Below, in pieces: positions 553-46,648 of a stretch of 64,000 nucleotides of DNA. A program made the translations under genes and the position numbers. The stretch's first letter is position 1, and the number at the start of each line of letters is the position of its first letter. The notes beneath the pieces are model-generated. The model made no database searches. It worked only from the letters and a program-made list of their open reading frames with translations, and was not told the origin of the DNA. Source of the stretch: an uncultured virus (IMG/VR IMGVR_UViG_3300042261_000720) (Duplodnaviria > Heunggongvirae > Uroviricota > Caudoviricetes); IMG/VR virus record IMGVR_UViG_3300042261_000720; one strand, given 5' to 3'.

Positions 553-2541
553 TTATTTTAAGATACAATCGACGACGTTAATTACTTCACCTTGGAATTC
601 TTGCTCTTCTATAAGAATTGGTCTCAGAAGTGCTCCAGATCCATCAGATTTAATTCTAATTTCTGGGTCATCATCCAATCTGATAGTATTTAGAGGTAGA
701 ACACGAGTCACTCTTCCATCCAAAGTCTTAATTTGATATCTGTTTCCAAATTTATCCAGTCCTTCATCATTATCACTATAACCATTTCCACCATCGAGAA
801 TAGAAACCCCATCAAGAATGTAGTTCCTTCTCCTATCAAAGTTATAGTTTTCACCCTCAGAAACTAGATAAATTTCTGTTACCTGTCCATTATCATTAAT
901 AATTGATCTTGCTTGAGCACCATATCCTTGTCCACATTCATCATAAATCTCAACGAATGGTGGATATTCATATCCTGATCCAGGATTAAGAATTCTGACT
1001 CCAATAATACTTGCAGTTGCATCTCGACCAATTCCACTGTAAGCACCAAAAATAGGAGCAGCAGAACATCCTTGCCCACCACCACCAAATATGTTAATGG
1101 TTGGTGGTTCACAAATTACTGGTGGTCCTGTAAAACAACCACCAAGAGGTGTTCTTGTTCCTGGACTACGAGTTCCTGAATTAAAGATATCAAATCCACC
1201 CAATACACTGTCAGAAAGAGACTTAGCAACATTTGCCTGTTCTAGTATTTGCCCAAATGGTGTTGGTGGAACATTAATAGGTCCTTGTCCGATTACCCAT
1301 TGAGTAACTCCACTTCCCGCTGATGGACTTTGACCGCAAGCAAGAGAAGCGGCCCCACCAGATAGTCCGTCCACTGCTGCACGTAAAGTTCCTTCGATAC
1401 TAAATCCACCAAAGAACTGAAGAATTGGACCTACAGCGCCAATTAACCCCTGCATTGCGCCAGCAATGTTTCCAATAATATCATTTACTAATGCACCAGT
1501 AAATTGATTCGCAGCACAAGCAACAAATCTCTGAACATTATTTACTACACCCTGTAGTGCTGATTTGATAATTCCACCCAATCCATTAATAATATTGTTA
1601 CTTATACAAGGAATGGCATTCTGAATTGCTTTGATTGGAGCAGACATTGCTTTTTGTGCTGCAACTCCTGCTAAGTGAGCACAAGGAGCACATTGTGTAG
1701 CAGCAAGAACAAGATTATAAACTAATTGGTATAAAAGTTTTAGACCTTTATTAAAAATTGGTGCAAGAGTTTTAAACAACTTGTTCACCATATTAGTTAC
1801 AAGTCCACTCACAATAGACTGAACTTTTCCAACAATAATATCAATCTCTCTATTAATCGTTTGTTGGATCTGAGCAGATGTATTTGTAATATCAGCGTTT
1901 AAATTTTGTACTCGACTAACTAAATTTCCAATTTCAGTTGATATTTTACTTGTTACATTACCTTTGCTTGGTGATGCTAATTGAACTTTATCTCCGATTG
2001 CACTAAAATAAGAGATCTCACCGTTTCCAATACTTTTTGCTTGTGCTGGAGAGACTGTTCTTGGACTCTTTTGTGAAGCGGAATTTTGCTCATTAGATTC
2101 ATTCTTCTGAACGCCACCATTAGGTTCTTTGATTTGATCACTGTATCCTGTAAAAGGTTGGAAAGGACCTTCATAATCTGTCGAAGGAACTTGAGAAGTT
2201 CTTCCAAATGTTGATAGAACTACAGGAATCTGAGCATTATCGCCATCGAGAAAGAATCCAAAGACAGTATCTCCAGGTTGTAACTTTACATCTGTTGCAA
2301 CGTTTGCTGCACCACTACCAGAAGTTGTAGGAATCAGAACTTGTGCCCAAGGTAGATCCTCATTGGGTAATTCTTTTTCACTATATGGATGATATCCTAA
2401 AATTCTAACCTTAGTTCTATTACCCCATCCAGATCCACCTGCTTGCCCACCCTGAGCACCAATAGGAGGAATCTGACCGATCCACCAACGAAATCCGTCT
2501 CTGCCTAGAAAATTACTTTTAAGTAGTGATTCGTCGATCAT
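553..2541 (-). CDS. gp5: Baseplate hub subunit gp5-like, no obvious lysozyme domain
   Basis: N-terminal gp5 OB-fold motifs FRWWIGQI, KVRILGYHP, LPWAQV, VFGFFLDGDNAQIPVV. Confidence 0.8.
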   Translation of the reverse strand: MIDESLLKSNFLGRDGFRWWIGQIPPIGAQGGQAGGSGWGNRTKVRILGYHPYSEKELPNEDLPWAQVLIPTTSGSGAANVATDVKLQPGDTVFGFFLDGDNAQIPVVLSTFGRTSQVPSTDYEGPFQPFTGYSDQIKEPNGGVQKNESNEQNSASQKSPRTVSPAQAKSIGNGEISYFSAIGDKVQLASPSKGNVTSKISTEIGNLVSRVQNLNADITNTSAQIQQTINREIDIIVGKVQSIVSGLVTNMVNKLFKTLAPIFNKGLKLLYQLVYNLVLAATQCAPCAHLAGVAAQKAMSAPIKAIQNAIPCISNNIINGLGGIIKSALQGVVNNVQRFVACAANQFTGALVNDIIGNIAGAMQGLIGAVGPILQFFGGFSIEGTLRAAVDGLSGGAASLACGQSPSAGSGVTQWVIGQGPINVPPTPFGQILEQANVAKSLSDSVLGGFDIFNSGTRSPGTRTPLGGCFTGPPVICEPPTINIFGGGGQGCSAAPIFGAYSGIGRDATASIIGVRILNPGSGYEYPPFVEIYDECGQGYGAQARSIINDNGQVTEIYLVSEGENYNFDRRRNYILDGVSILDGGNGYSDNDEGLDKFGNRYQIKTLDGRVTRVLPLNTIRLDDDPEIRIKSDGSGALLRPILIEEQEFQGEVINVVDCILK

Positions 2542-16696: not shown

Positions 16697-16735
16697 ATTC
16701 TACACAAAAAAAGAAGGAGAGTCAACCCCCCCTTC
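16697..16735 (-). terminator. Terminator hairpin overlapping a sigma70-type promoter
   Basis: AGAAGGGGGG-TTGA-CTCTCCTTCT then T run; TTGACT-17 bp-TAGAAT overlaps it. Confidence 0.65.
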
Positions 16736-16755
16736 TATTATGTATTGATTCTATT

Positions 16756-16839
16756 TTATTTAAATAGAAATTGTATATAAAGCGACAATAAAGTAATTAC
16801 AACCGCACAACCTGCGGTAATTTGTAATACTGCGAACAT
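16756..16839 (-). CDS. 27-aa hydrophobic peptide
   Basis: MFAVLQITAGCAVVITLLSLYIQFLFK; start overlaps upstream stop (TGATG). Confidence 0.45.
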   Translation of the reverse strand: MFAVLQITAGCAVVITLLSLYIQFLFK

Positions 16840-16937
16840 CACTTTGCTCCAACAAGTTGTGCTAGTTGTGCTTGATGACGACGCTCTTCTTTTTGTTTTT
16901 GTTCTTTAATGATTTGTAGGAAGTTAAGTTTCTTCAT
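16839..16937 (-). CDS. 32-aa basic Gln-rich peptide
   Basis: MKKLNFLQIIKEQKQKEERRHQAQLAQLVGAK; ATGA coupling and GGAGG upstream. Confidence 0.6.
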   Translation of the reverse strand: MKKLNFLQIIKEQKQKEERRHQAQLAQLVGAK

Positions 16938-17098
16938 TTGCCCCCCTCCCAATTCCAGTTGTTGCATGGACGATATGCGGTTCCACGATATACATTCTGT
17001 GGATGGGATGGAGCATGAGTTTCAGAATACCAATGTTGATATTCTTGCTTAGGGGTGTCAGTGTTATACTTGCACCCTCTATAGGTTGCTTGTGACAT
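16934..17098 (-). CDS. DUF4278-like small protein (54 aa, two YRG motifs)
   Basis: MSQATYRGCKYNTD...NVYRGTAYRP...; strong AAGGAG RBS; directly 3' of a glutamine-riboswitch-like motif. Confidence 0.75.
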   Translation of the reverse strand: MSQATYRGCKYNTDTPKQEYQHWYSETHAPSHPQNVYRGTAYRPCNNWNWEGGK

Positions 17099-17131
17099 TA
17101 GGTTTTCTCCTTAGTTTTTGAGGTTAAAGAG

Positions 17132-17300
17132 CGTTCCTTCAGTCGGCTTTTGCGTCTATTTTGCACTCTTTGGGAGCAATTTGTTTTAACTCCCAAATCA
17201 ATTCATTCTTTGCTTGTTTGGGAATGTCCTGTTTTTGGACTCTCCCAGCAATCAACTGTGCTTGTAGGCAAGTTAGAATGAGTGCTTCCATAGATGAACG
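17132..17300 (-). ncRNA. Glutamine-riboswitch-like aptamer 2 (glnA/Downstream-peptide family) with a very long P2 loop
   Basis: CGTTC-A-TCTAT...ATAGA-CGCAAAAGCCGACTGAAG-GAACG; P1 CGTTC/GAACG, P2 TCTAT/ATAGA plus GCACTC/GAGTGC. Confidence 0.7.
17139..17291 (-). CDS. 50-aa two-Cys peptide nested in aptamer 2 (not in ORF track)
   Basis: MEALILTCLQAQLIAGRVQKQDIPKQAKNELIWELKQIAPKECKIDAKAD; similar to the 68-aa ORF upstream. Confidence 0.55.
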   Translation of the reverse strand: MEALILTCLQAQLIAGRVQKQDIPKQAKNELIWELKQIAPKECKIDAKAD

Positions 17301-17303
17301 ATC

Positions 17304-17554
17304 CGTTCCGAGTCGGCTTACTTCCGTCCTATTCAGTTTAGCACTTAAGTCTCACAACATCCTTTCGGAGTTCTGACAGCAATCGGTCTTCTCTTCTTTG
17401 ATCTACTACATCGTCGTTTTTAACGATGTCCATTAGTTCCCACGCTGCGTCGCAACTTATTGTCACTTGATTAGTTTGGGCAAGTTGGGGCGTAGAAATA
17501 GAAAGAAGTGGAACCCATGCTAAAAGCAAAAGTGCTTTAGTCATAGGATGAACG
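17304..17554 (-). ncRNA. Glutamine-riboswitch-like aptamer 1 with a very long P2 loop
   Basis: CGTTC-A-TCCTAT...ATAGGA-CGGAAGTAAGCCGACTCG-GAACG; the CGGAAGTAAG junction matches the glnA motif; extra pairing AGCACTT/AAGTGCT. Confidence 0.7.
17338..17544 (-). CDS. 68-aa two-Cys peptide with hydrophobic N-terminus, nested in aptamer 1
   Basis: MTKALLLLAWVPLLS...TISC...LLSELRK...KC; the ATG lies inside the P2 stem. Confidence 0.55.
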   Translation of the reverse strand: MTKALLLLAWVPLLSISTPQLAQTNQVTISCDAAWELMDIVKNDDVVDQRREDRLLSELRKDVVRLKC

Positions 17555-17610
17555 TTAGGGGAATATTATACCCCTATCCATTGTATATATGCAAGTAATA
17601 TCTTAAAACC

Positions 17611-17624
17611 GTAACAATAGATAC
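17611..17624. promoter_or_regulatory. NtcA-type box
   Basis: GTA-ACAATAGA-TAC (GTA-N8-TAC), about 55 bp upstream of aptamer 1; TACAAT (17580-17585) and TATAAT (17565-17570) lie downstream on the minus strand. Confidence 0.5.
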
Positions 17625-17666
17625 AAAAATGTATCAATATTATACTATTTTATATTAAAATGTGTA

Positions 17667-18695
17667 TCACCCACCAGGTTTCATTTTAACGCCAAGTTTT
17701 TGCTGACGCTTAACATCAGATTGTCTTGCTTTCGCAAGTGCCTGTTGTCTTTGCGCTTCATCTTGCTTTTTATAAGCACCCGCAAATAGTGATCTACCAA
17801 TTCTCTCAAATGGATTGGAAGAAGTTCTAGCAAGAGTGCTTGGATCTGCTGCTCTCTTATAAACTGCCTTACCACCCTTAAATGCAAGATGTCCTACTGC
17901 TTCTTTTCCTTTGGCATCTCTTACAACAGAAGTCTTATCTAGTTGTACCGTTTTTCTTTGCTTACCAACGCCAGTGGATATAAATCCAGTTCCACCTTTA
18001 CCCTTACTAAAGGTAGTCTTACCACCAATACCCGACAAACCGCCACCTGCTTGCGATTGACGCTGCTTCTGTGCCATCGCTGCCTTCTCTTTGCCTGTAG
18101 CACCTGCAACCACCTCAGATGCCTTTCCAGCGAGTCCTGAACCTGCCATATAACCACCGATACCACCAACAACACCACCAACTGCAGTGCCCACTGGACC
18201 GCCCAATGCGGTGCCAATAGCAGCACCACCAGCAGCTCCTGCCTTCATACCTGCTAATCCACCTGCTGCCTTAGTTGCACCCATTGCAAGAGCAGATCTT
18301 GTTCTACGTCCTCTTTGTTTTTGTGCAGCTGCTTCTAATCCAGTATCAAGAGCAAGTTGTACTGGAGTTGCTGCTTTACCAATAAATCCTTTTAGTTTTC
18401 CAAATCTTCCAGCATCCTTTAGTGCTGAAGATCCAAGTTCAGCAGCAGTTTTAACATTCTGTGCTCCTTTAAGAGCTTTTGTCACATTAGCAGCTGTTGA
18501 TGGTTTAGGAGTTGTACCTCTAACTGTCGATCCAGGAACTTTAGTTCTTCTTGCTTTTAATTTTGCTTTTTGAGCAGGACTTAAATCAGTTCTAGCATCA
18601 ATTTCATCAACGCTCATCCCACCCCCAGAAGCGGGAGTACCTGATGCGTCAGTCCATTTATCTGCTTCCGTAATAAATTCCCTAAAAGACTTCAT
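17667..18695 (-). CDS. Putative internal head/virion protein with glycine-zipper segment
   Basis: MKSFREFITEA leader; Gly/Ala/Lys rich; TATAAATA late promoter at 18717-18724. Confidence 0.5.
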   Translation of the reverse strand: MKSFREFITEADKWTDASGTPASGGGMSVDEIDARTDLSPAQKAKLKARRTKVPGSTVRGTTPKPSTAANVTKALKGAQNVKTAAELGSSALKDAGRFGKLKGFIGKAATPVQLALDTGLEAAAQKQRGRRTRSALAMGATKAAGGLAGMKAGAAGGAAIGTALGGPVGTAVGGVVGGIGGYMAGSGLAGKASEVVAGATGKEKAAMAQKQRQSQAGGGLSGIGGKTTFSKGKGGTGFISTGVGKQRKTVQLDKTSVVRDAKGKEAVGHLAFKGGKAVYKRAADPSTLARTSSNPFERIGRSLFAGAYKKQDEAQRQQALAKARQSDVKRQQKLGVKMKPGG

Positions 18696-45436: not shown

Positions 45437-45643
45437 CCTTGTGTTTTAACCTTTGTCGCCAAAGGGAGCGGACTATATCATCACTCATAAGAGTGTCGGA
45501 CGCTAGTGGCGTATTACGGATGAAGCGTCATCCACCGCCTAGTCTCTGAACCTTCCTTACACGCCTGCAAGGCTTGGCTGCTGATTGTCTACAAGAGAGT
45601 TCCAGCAATTCATCCGATTTAACGAGCGCCATGCGTTCACAAA
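45437..45643 (-). mobile_element. Group I self-splicing intron in psbA (207 nt, no internal ORF)
   Basis: Exon 1 ends in U, intron ends in G; P AATTGCTGGAA, Q AATCAGCAG, R GTTCAGAGACTA, S TGATATAGTCC; guide GCGCTC pairs with exon GAGCGT. Confidence 0.93.
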
Positions 45644-46648
45644 ACGCTCGTGCATTACCTCCATGCCCAGTCCAGCACGGTTAAGAACATCAGCCCAGGT
45701 GTTGAGTACACGACCCTGACTATCCAGAATACTCTGATTGAAATTCAGACCGTTGAGATTAAAAGCCATCGTGGAAACACCAAGAGCAGTGAACCAGATG
45801 CCTACAACGGGCCAGGCAGCAAGGAAGAAGTGCAAACTACGGCTATTGTTGAACGAAGCATACTGAAAAATAAGGCGTCCAAAGTATCCGTGTGCGGCAA
45901 CGATGTTATAAGTCTCTTCTTCTTGTCCGAACTTGTAACCATAGTTCTGTGACTCGTTCTCAGTGGTTTCACGAACCAGCGAGGAAGTAACCAGAGAACC
46001 GTGCATAGCACTGAACAGAGAACCACCGAACACACCAGCAACTCCAAGCATATGGAAGGGGTGCATCAGGATGTTGTGCTCTGCCTGGAACACAAGCATA
46101 TAGTTAAAGGTGCCAGAGATACCCAGAGGCATCGCATCAGAGAAAGAACCTTGACCGAAAGGATAGACAAGGAACACTGCAGAAGCAGCGGCAACAGGAG
46201 CAGAATAAGCAACACAGATCCAAGGACGCATACCCAGACGATAAGAGAGTTCCCACTCACGACCCATATAGGCGTAAATACCAATCAGGAAGTGGAACAC
46301 AACCAGTTGGAAAGGACCACCGTTGTAGAGCCACTCATCTAGGGAAGCAGCTTCCCAGATGGGATAAAAGTGCAGTCCAATAGCATTGGACGAAGGAATC
46401 ACAGCACCAGAGATGATGTTGTTTCCGTACATAAGTGAACCAGCAACGGGTTCGCGGATACCATCAATGTCCACAGGAGGTGCGGCAATGAAGGCAACAA
46501 TGAAGCAGATAGTAGCAGCAAGCAGGCAAGGAATCATGAGGACTCCGAACCAACCGACATAAAGACGATTATCGGTTGAGGTTACCCACTGGCAGAACTG
46601 TTCCCAAGTATTCGATTGTGATTTTTGACGTGAAAGTGTAGCAGTCAT
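45644..46648 (-). CDS. psbA: Photosystem II D1 protein, exon 1 (335 codons; spliced product 360 aa)
   Basis: Canonical D1 up to [13 protein letters not shown] (Glu130-type). Confidence 0.97.

Follow-up and report, generated by a model that had tools for sequence, protein, structure and literature searches.

The window analysed here, a stretch of 64,000 nucleotides (nt) from an uncultured virus (IMG/VR record IMGVR_UViG_3300042261_000720; Caudoviricetes), carries on its minus strand, at positions 17554..17132, what its sequence identifies as a glnA-type (type 1) glutamine sensor with two core units. Each unit encloses a gene within its helix P2, and the comparison of related loci indicates that both units are one interlocked sensor, joined by a shared helix P3. 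The source genome is a T4-like cyanophage, in which this stretch is the leader of a small operon. We favour, with moderate confidence, the overall reading that translation of the nested genes and sensing of glutamine exclude each other on each RNA molecule. The riboswitch class is a known one; new are the double-nested genes and the interlocked cores, the function of which we infer from the sequence.

Layout and identity of the sensor

An earlier note on this DNA had described two glutamine-riboswitch units, each enclosing a whole open reading frame (ORF) in its P2 loop. All strings quoted there are found on the minus strand, and the assignment to the glnA type is supported by the comparisons given below. 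The sensor comprises the following elements:

17554..17304, minus strand: unit 1, CGTTCA, TCCTAT ... ATAGGA, then CGGAAGTAAGCCGACTCGGAACG
17303..17301, minus strand: linker GAT between unit 1 and unit 2
17300..17132, minus strand: unit 2, CGTTCA, TCTAT ... ATAGA, then CGCAAAAGCCGACTGAAGGAACG
17549..17554, minus strand: P1 5′ strand of unit 1 (outer P1 5′ strand if interlocked), CGTTC plus A
17327..17548, minus strand: P2 of unit 1, TCCTAT (17548..17543) with ATAGGA (17332..17327), enclosing ORF1
17535..17530 with 17346..17341, minus strand: P2 extension of unit 1, GCACTT with AAGTGC, a second-tier helix
17319..17326, minus strand: joiner CGGAAGTA, canonical glnA J2/3, aligned to the RF01739 consensus in compact homologues
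17311..17318, minus strand: AGCCGACT, 5′ strand of the inter-unit P3, from the pairing comparison across loci
17296..17308, minus strand: GAACG-GAT-CGTTC, that is P1 3′ strand of unit 1, linker and P1 5′ strand of unit 2 (inner P1 hairpin if interlocked)
17155..17294, minus strand: P2 of unit 2, TCTAT (17294..17290) with ATAGA (17159..17155), enclosing ORF2
17285..17280 with 17168..17163, minus strand: P2 extension of unit 2, GCACTC with GAGTGC, a second-tier helix
17141..17148, minus strand: AGCCGACT, 3′ strand of the inter-unit P3, from the same comparison
17131..17140, minus strand: joiner GAAG, GAACG (P1 3′ strand of unit 2, or of the outer P1) and C, from the sequence

Compact homologous units at all four annotated loci tested score 35.6, 35.1, 34.2 and 33.5 bits against the Rfam model RF01739 (gathering score 35), and the compact pair in the S-CREM1 record is annotated as glnA riboswitch. 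The CGTTC and the following A of the P1 5′ strand do not vary in any of 102 compact units or 34 double sensors. These 34 distinct compact double sensors were the source of a profile of 98 positions, which scores sequence only and not structure. With both inserts deleted in silico, the stretch from the window aligns with profile positions 1-97 of 98 at 69.2 bits (E = 1.1e-23), which lies inside the range of the training set (55.8-93.7 bits) and was matched by none of 200 shuffles. A model match after removal of the inserts was a check that the earlier note had proposed, and in this sequence-profile version it came out in favour of the assignment. For the Downstream-peptide model RF01704 (gathering score 33) there is no match in the window, and the homologue in P-SSM2 stays below the threshold with 26.4 bits. 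The riboswitch is associated with DUF4278 genes, and glutamine binding turns the translation of gifB on (PMC6212724).

Pairing of P2 across the inserts

Related loci were compared in a sample of 125, made up of at least 120 viral-contig matches to the 16-base junction, four phage records and the window itself. The sample is biased toward the exact junction string, and locus counts from it refer to the matches listed. P2 was measured as contiguous pairing outward from the junction, and partners were re-dealt for the shuffles. The 54 distinct insert-bearing versions of unit 2 pair with their own partner over 6.43 base pairs (bp) on average, compared with 3.82 bp for shuffled partners, and none of 1000 shuffles reaches this value. 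For the 30 distinct insert-bearing versions of unit 1 the means are 5.47 bp and 4.81 bp, and 2 of 1000 shuffles reach the former. The claim that both sides of P2 stay paired despite the inserts, with co-variation, therefore stands for both units. Compensated stems are exemplified by TCTAT/ATAGA, TCTCAT/ATGGGA, TTCTTA/TGAGAA and GATTATGGTT/GACCATAATC; among compact pairs, changes on both sides were found at 4 of 4 P2 pairs in unit 1 and at 4 of 5 in unit 2. Pairing of P2 between the units was rejected, cross-unit partners averaging only 2.2-2.3 bp (2.27 bp for unit 1).

Across 23 family members, 85.5% of the cells in the extension helix of unit 2 are paired, and covariation there is modest. When 17562..17090 is folded, the minimum-energy structure contains the long-range P2 helices of both units and both GCACTT/GCACTC extensions, and none of 100 shuffles is equally stable (z = -5.03). 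RNAalifold, applied within one family, gave little beyond invariant pairs or preferred a local hairpin. An explanation of the inserts as introns or processed spacers was also discarded: in the joined forms from RNA libraries a different sequence stands between the flanks, and phage DNA itself contains compact forms.

A probable interlocked sensor with a shared P3

The elements expected of a glnA junction are divided between the units. Unit 1 has the joiner CGGAAGTA and only a C before its GAACG, where GAAG is absent; unit 2 has GAAG before GAACG, and CGCAAA takes the place of CGGAAGTA, so that the GGAAGTA joiner is absent. Each unit thus lacks one joiner. The P3 segments of the two units form an eight-pair helix with each other that holds on 34 compact pairs, in which the terminal pair (columns 39-84) is GC 12 times, UA 8 times and AU 3 times and never unpaired. 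Within a unit, the P3 mini-hairpins drawn in the Rfam alignment are broken in 17 of 26 sequences for one unit and in 15 of 23 for the other. At the same position, all 94 long-class loci listed are paired between the units (TA 67, GC 23, AT 3, TG 1), and so are all 68 insert-bearing loci of this class. The short-class P3 segments listed are AGTCG/CGACT at nine loci, GGTCG/CGACT at three and AGTCA/TGACT at two. The earlier description of two independent tandem aptamers does not agree with these inter-unit pairs of three Watson-Crick types, and on this comparative evidence we regard the units as one interlocked sensor held together by the shared P3.

A P3 shared between the units leads to a knot-free fold with an outer P1 and an inner hairpin. 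In this fold, which we consider likely from the arrangement of the sequence elements, the first CGTTC and the last GAACG form the outer P1, and the middle GAACG-GAT-CGTTC folds into the inner hairpin, at a further junction of reduced form. The outer junction then bears the full canonical glnA core, namely CGTTCA, P2, CGGAAGTA, P3, GAAG, GAACG and C, but the invariant P1 strands leave the partners indistinguishable. The inner hairpin is present in the minimum-energy fold, and its energy of -3.9 kcal/mol is not better than that of shuffles. Its region at 17296..17308 is 93-96% identical in many cyanophages. Variants of the P1 3′ strand were sought in two scans with 33 and 76 loci, and none of these 109 loci showed a riboswitch context; two of them passed a loose filter and turned out to be unrelated DNA. 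The linker measures 3 nt in the 120 loci from the junction-pattern scan. Two 14-base gapped patterns gave 239 loci, 48 of them with riboswitch context, and here all linkers are 4-6 nt and never 0-2 nt. Linkers as short as these fit a hairpin loop and a short spacer alike.

The nested genes and their proteins

Two ORFs fill the P2 loops:

17544..17338, minus strand: nested ORF1, 68 amino acids (aa), ATG at the P2 5′ strand
17291..17139, minus strand: nested ORF2, 50 aa, ATG at the P2 5′ strand

ORF1 stops at 17340..17338, upstream of its P2 3′ strand. The stop codon TGA of ORF2 (17141..17139) lies within the sensor core ...GACTGAAGG, 40 nt upstream of the IF17-like gene that follows the sensor, and its final six codons together with the stop are made up of the P2 3′ strand, the CGCAAA joiner and the P3 3′ strand. 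This placement recurs at the related loci. An ATG at unit offset 9-13, in the P2 5′ strand, opens an ORF of at least 49 codons in 95 of 95 inserts listed, and 54 of the 60 unit-2 ORFs listed end at the shared T(G/A)A of the core. The exceptions are an earlier stop in L063, L105 and L119 and reading beyond the unit in L031, L051 and L073. In L051 and L073, unit 2 is an outlier form: it has a 10-bp P2 stem (GATTATGGTT/GACCATAATC), and its nested ORF extends at least 90 codons beyond the sensor. In 70 of 81 distinct units listed, the contiguous P2 stem takes in at least part of the nested ATG. A Shine-Dalgarno (SD)-like 4-mer 4-18 nt upstream was found for 0 of these 81 and for all 111 downstream genes listed, which bears out a caveat of the earlier note that the nested ATGs have no clear SD sequence.

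The remaining two frames are closed in 90 of 90 distinct nested ORFs, and changes are concentrated at third codon positions. Substitutions were counted in pairs of equal length with an identity of at least 50%, leaving out codons that overlap the helices or the core. The ratio of nonsynonymous to synonymous change (dN/dS) is 0.18 for unit-2 ORFs (proportions of synonymous and nonsynonymous differences pS 0.614 and pN 0.202; 123 pairs) and 0.28 for unit-1 ORFs (pS 0.327, pN 0.111; 60 pairs). By this coding signal the nested ORFs are real genes under purifying selection.

Homologue clusters number 245 for ORF1 and 167 for ORF2. Pfam domains are absent from all of them, and the few names given at source seem to be wrong labels. 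A named family for the nested peptides did not emerge: there is no Pfam match at or near the cut-off, and the protein atlas gave no lead. ORF2 matches PHROG 504, of unknown function, with E = 4e-5. A profile search with the nested peptides returned 287 clusters, nearly all of 49-110 aa, and two cysteines are invariant in the alignment of all 41 representatives from 13 peptide clusters. The ORF1 product has a hydrophobic N-terminus resembling a signal peptide, followed by a helical hairpin with two cysteines (Cys31, Cys68); the AlphaFold2 model, with a predicted local distance difference test score (pLDDT) of 71.4, has helices at 31-43 and 49-66 and one cysteine at each end. In ORF2 the cysteines are at positions 8 and 43. 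The resemblance of the two peptides, which had been noticed before, holds as a common pattern of two cysteines 34-36 residues apart and not as homology, since the profile-profile comparison of the two families with hhalign was not significant (probability 1.2%, E = 0.045).

Some stretches of ORF1 seem more constrained than a protein-coding role would lead one to expect. About 37 nt, GGGAACTAATGGACATCGTTAAAAACGACGATGTAGT at 17398..17434 (minus strand), are nearly invariant in 18 family members including synonymous sites. This stretch contains an 8-bp hairpin, ACATCGTT/GACGATGT, and the first ~45 nt of ORF1 are equally frozen. The pattern suggests a constraint at the RNA level in addition to coding.

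At locus L003 (DSL-LC02, 797..815) the compact P2 of unit 1 holds an ATG and a four-codon frame, which ends at the TAA of the ...AAGTAAG core. One unit-1 family with ORFs of 63-69 aa has the same stop and the same last residues, GRK, so that the compact forms and those that bear an ORF may have arisen from each other by ORF growth or loss.

Contigs from four RNA libraries of four studies cover parts of both nested ORFs at 85-99% identity, and these libraries may contain DNA. One contig (X3) covers 17139-17309; the contigs reveal neither transcripts nor their ends, and in none of the runs is there cover beyond 17583 or before 16734.

Occurrence of the layout

Unit lengths at the 125 loci fall into two groups among the matches listed, 37-72 nt and 167-254 nt. 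In the order unit 1/unit 2, the states listed are compact and insert at 43 loci, both compact at 40, insert and compact at 20 and both insert at 14; eight of the 125 loci are partly cut. An ORF is thus borne by unit 1 in 35 of 120, by unit 2 in 60 of 121 and by both in 14 of 117 of the matches listed, and the window belongs to the last group. Related isolates with inserts include DSL-LC02, DSL-LC03 and P-SSM2. In genome contigs the 16-base junction has at least 120 matches, only one of which (L491) is in a riboswitch context among those listed, while the rest look like chance; the scan is evidence neither for nor against a presence in cyanobacterial genomes. L491 is a 3.8-kb contig of a metagenome-assembled genome from a lake, filed as Acetobacteraceae, and has a double-nested sensor with an ORF1 nearly identical to that of the window. 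It is probably a cyanophage contig that was binned into a bacterial genome.

A proposed exclusion of translation and glutamine sensing on the same RNA

Two features downstream of the cores enter into the proposed mechanism:

17107..17131, minus strand: candidate expression platform, CTCTTTA (17131..17125) with TAAGGAG (17113..17107), the latter with the SD sequence
16934..17098, minus strand: downstream gene of the DUF4278/IF17-like type, 54 aa, two YRG motifs

According to the reading that we favour, a ribosome on ORF1 or ORF2 would melt the P2 of that unit. A ribosome on ORF2 would also melt the inner joiner and P3, and at its stop codon it would cover P1 and the anti-SD sequence. The folded sensor would pair both start codons, which have no SD. 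Since the ribosome would melt the sensor and the folded sensor would bury the starts, both activities would exclude each other on one molecule. In the order of events that we prefer, the nested proteins would first be translated from nascent or unfolded RNA, ribosome-free RNA would then close into the sensor, and glutamine would finally release the SD in front of the IF17-like gene from pairing with the anti-SD, CTCTTTA, in the manner of the gifB switch of Synechocystis. Because ORF2 ends at the TGA of the core, its termination would open P1 and the anti-SD, and translational coupling to the downstream gene would be possible. Control could accordingly take the direction of reciprocal expression, of a timed hand-over from translation to sensing, or of coupling to ORF2 termination. 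A more far-reaching version is tentative and rather doubtful as a whole: a translation-gated sensor of 423 nt would read glutamine only on ribosome-free RNA, the nested proteins would be made early or at low glutamine and the IF17-like peptide late or at high glutamine, and the sensor halves would act as homology arms for gene swapping.

Several observations weigh against mutual exclusion on an interlocked sensor. The window has no match to a glutamine family of Rfam at gathering scores, nor one up to E 10 over 16900-17700; the missing match to RF01739 is due to the inserts of 130 nt and 210 nt. The closure of an outer P1 would span 423 nt, and because all four P1 strands are invariant, covariation does not decide between outer and inner P1 helices and a side-by-side arrangement. 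The P2 set of unit 1 is dominated by one family in which the helix hardly varies, and its support is thin. In addition, a local 5′ hairpin containing ATG1 and the P2 5′ strand (17514..17547, minus strand) folds with -14 kcal/mol (z = -3.56) and is the consensus fold of 18 members of the ORF1 family, with one compensated pair; as modelled, this strong hairpin competes with the long-range P2 of unit 1 and adds a further state. The CTCTTTA/TAAGGAG helix has 7 bp and -6.3 kcal/mol (z = -1.71), 17 of 200 shuffles fold as well, and the sequence after the sensor differs at related loci. Finally, P2 is expected from the solved structures of glnA RNAs to form with or without ligand. With P2 probably formed in both states, a glutamine-dependent translation of the nested genes is not implied by the anatomy.

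The rival that survives best, although we consider it unlikely, treats the genes as cargo in a tolerant loop: the P2 loops would house accessory genes, the sensor halves would serve as homology arms, and coupling of translation to sensing would be an unselected side effect. It draws on the presence and absence of inserts among close relatives in all four combinations listed, and on peptide clusters that occur in either unit (cluster 0 three times in unit 1 and once in unit 2, cluster 4 once and twice). Loci with an ORF1 94-97% identical to that of the window carry another ORF2 cluster (e.g. L112 and L124), and in relatives, contigs from RNA libraries have the two sides of each insert joined by a different sequence. 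That insert states are mixed and that ORF1 and ORF2 families assort independently speaks for recombination within the conserved cores as the means of exchange. However, against mere cargo stand an ATG held at a fixed offset in the P2 strand of every insert listed, the lack of an SD in all nested ORFs where the neighbouring genes all have one, and ORF2 reading through the core to a stop inside it in nine tenths of the unit-2 inserts listed. The fixed ATG, the missing SD and the core stop look selected, and cargo and mutual exclusion are not incompatible with each other.

Two independent aptamers side by side, each binding its own glutamine for a steeper response and each with an ORF in its P2 loop, are improbable. 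Such an arrangement is suggested by the Rfam model, in which each compact unit is aligned singly and given a P3 mini-hairpin of 2 bp, and by the published glnA alignment, which in the part available gives units singly, including unit 1 of P-SSM2, in a paper that also notes tandem glnA RNAs (PMC2864571); moreover, the P2 pairing stays within the unit. Against it stand the frequent failure of the P3 pair within units, where the inter-unit pair holds at every long-class locus listed with compensatory changes, the absence of GAAG from unit 1 and of GGAAGTA from unit 2, and the linker, which is always short, both in the junction-pattern scan and at the 48 further loci. A dead sensor, split and inactivated by the insertions, with halves that persist as coding sequence, promoter-proximal leader or recombination scars, is very improbable: it would fit the missing covariance-model match and a glutamine response that is only predicted, but compensated changes keep P2 paired across the inserts in diverged families, conservation of the cores and of the inter-unit helix is equally high at loci with inserts and at compact ones, and the collapsed sequence scores within the compact range.

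Comparison with known systems

Riboswitch aptamers are regarded as compact non-coding domains, and their use by phages is said to be rare. In group I introns, whole ORFs sit in peripheral loops, and the RNA is functional only once the helix that closes the loop has formed again; those introns are self-splicing mobile elements with homing endonuclease genes, whereas the sensor described here is a ligand sensor in an mRNA leader.

With the type 1 glutamine riboswitch of the Synechocystis gifB/IF17 leader (RF01739; PMC6212724) the sensor shares the core of P1 CGTTC/GAACG, A, P2, CGGAAGTA, P3 and GAAG. It also lies before a gene that is probably of the DUF4278/IF17-like type and has a candidate anti-SD after P1, and a translational ON switch is expected. 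According to the same source, glutamine riboswitches usually control genes of the DUF4278/IF17 type. It differs from the gifB type in having two cores with one shared P3 and a gene of 50-68 codons in each P2, in that core letters of unit 2 are also six codons and the stop of ORF2, and in being missed by standard model scans. The tandem glnA RNAs of Weinberg et al. 2010 (PMC2864571) consist of the same units, from cyanophage and marine sequences, and their alignment includes unit 1 of P-SSM2 among its rows. There the aptamers are separate and compact, and no row among those compared spans an ORF; the alignment has wide gap columns in the P2 and P3 loops, so some rows do have long inserts. The glutamine-II riboswitch (RF01704) has the core sequence and a downstream YRG peptide gene of the same kind in common with our locus, but that family has a pseudoknot instead of P1 and no match in the window.

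The closest precedent is an upstream ORF of about 16 codons, uMetE2, in the B12 aptamer of metE in M. tuberculosis (PMC11260477), where a translated ORF inside an aptamer alters the expression of the regulated gene. In contrast to the sensor ORFs, which fill a hairpin loop with 50-68 codons and evolve under purifying selection, uMetE2 extends from +123 to +170 nt and has its own SD, and no protein function has been shown for it in the part of the paper available. For glutamine aptamers, PMC5473149 reports only two in two cyanophage genomes. In the literature searched, which included Weinberg 2010 in part and did not extend to Ames and Breaker 2011, no published account of genes inside a glutamine aptamer or of a shared helix was found, in agreement with the earlier note, which knew of no description of such an architecture.

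The significance of these findings lies first in the sensor itself, which with two cores that appear interlocked is present in at least 120 cyanophage contigs, in many of them with a real gene, or two, enclosed by its helices. Should the coupling prove real, this would be a natural design in which one RNA fold responds both to translating ribosomes and to a metabolite; it would tie phage gene expression to the nitrogen status of the host and show that riboswitches with long inserts, a large class, escape model-based RNA scans. The nested sensors are also small, compact objects for studying co-transcriptional folding across translated regions.

Expression signals and the operon

On the minus strand, the sensor locus is flanked by a 342-aa gene, which ends at 17667, and by the 54-aa gene at 17098..16934. 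Signals at both ends of the operon are:

17565..17594, minus strand: candidate sigma-70-type promoter, TTGCAT (17594..17589), 18-nt spacer, TATAAT (17570..17565)
16712..16736, minus strand: terminator-like hairpin with T run, end of the small operon

The first hexamer of the candidate promoter fits the consensus at 3 of 6 positions, and the consensus scan did not list it; related loci have TTGACT-17-TATAAT at the equivalent position. From the candidate TATAAT at 17570..17565 we infer that the RNA would start a few bases before the first CGTTCA, which would place ATG1 about 15 nt from the 5′ end. One RNA-library contig (X2) enters adapter letters at 17558, seven bases past TATAAT, which is a hint only.

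The 54-aa gene matches PHROG 5049 (E = 2.5e-10) and has two YRG motifs, like the YRG/DUF4278-type peptides to which it probably belongs; its match to Pfam DUF4278 (18.7 bits, E = 0.0024) is under the cut-off of 25.3 bits. It is followed by a further small ORF at 16839..16967 (minus strand), an internal ATG of which overlaps the stop of the YRG gene (ATGA) and which precedes the terminator-like hairpin. Judged from these frames, the operon may hold four small genes.

Genomic setting

The closest public relatives at the sensor locus are phages of the Kyanoviridae that infect Synechococcus and Prochlorococcus. Elsewhere in the window, two further RNA elements were found:

45449..45693, minus strand: group I intron, 78.5 bits
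46686..46778, minus strand: PhotoRC-II RNA, 82.1 bits

The pair of group I intron and PhotoRC-II RNA is usual for the psbA region of cyanophages. The 342-aa ORF upstream of the sensor (17667..18695, minus strand) is very rich in glycine, alanine and lysine and contains long low-complexity runs.

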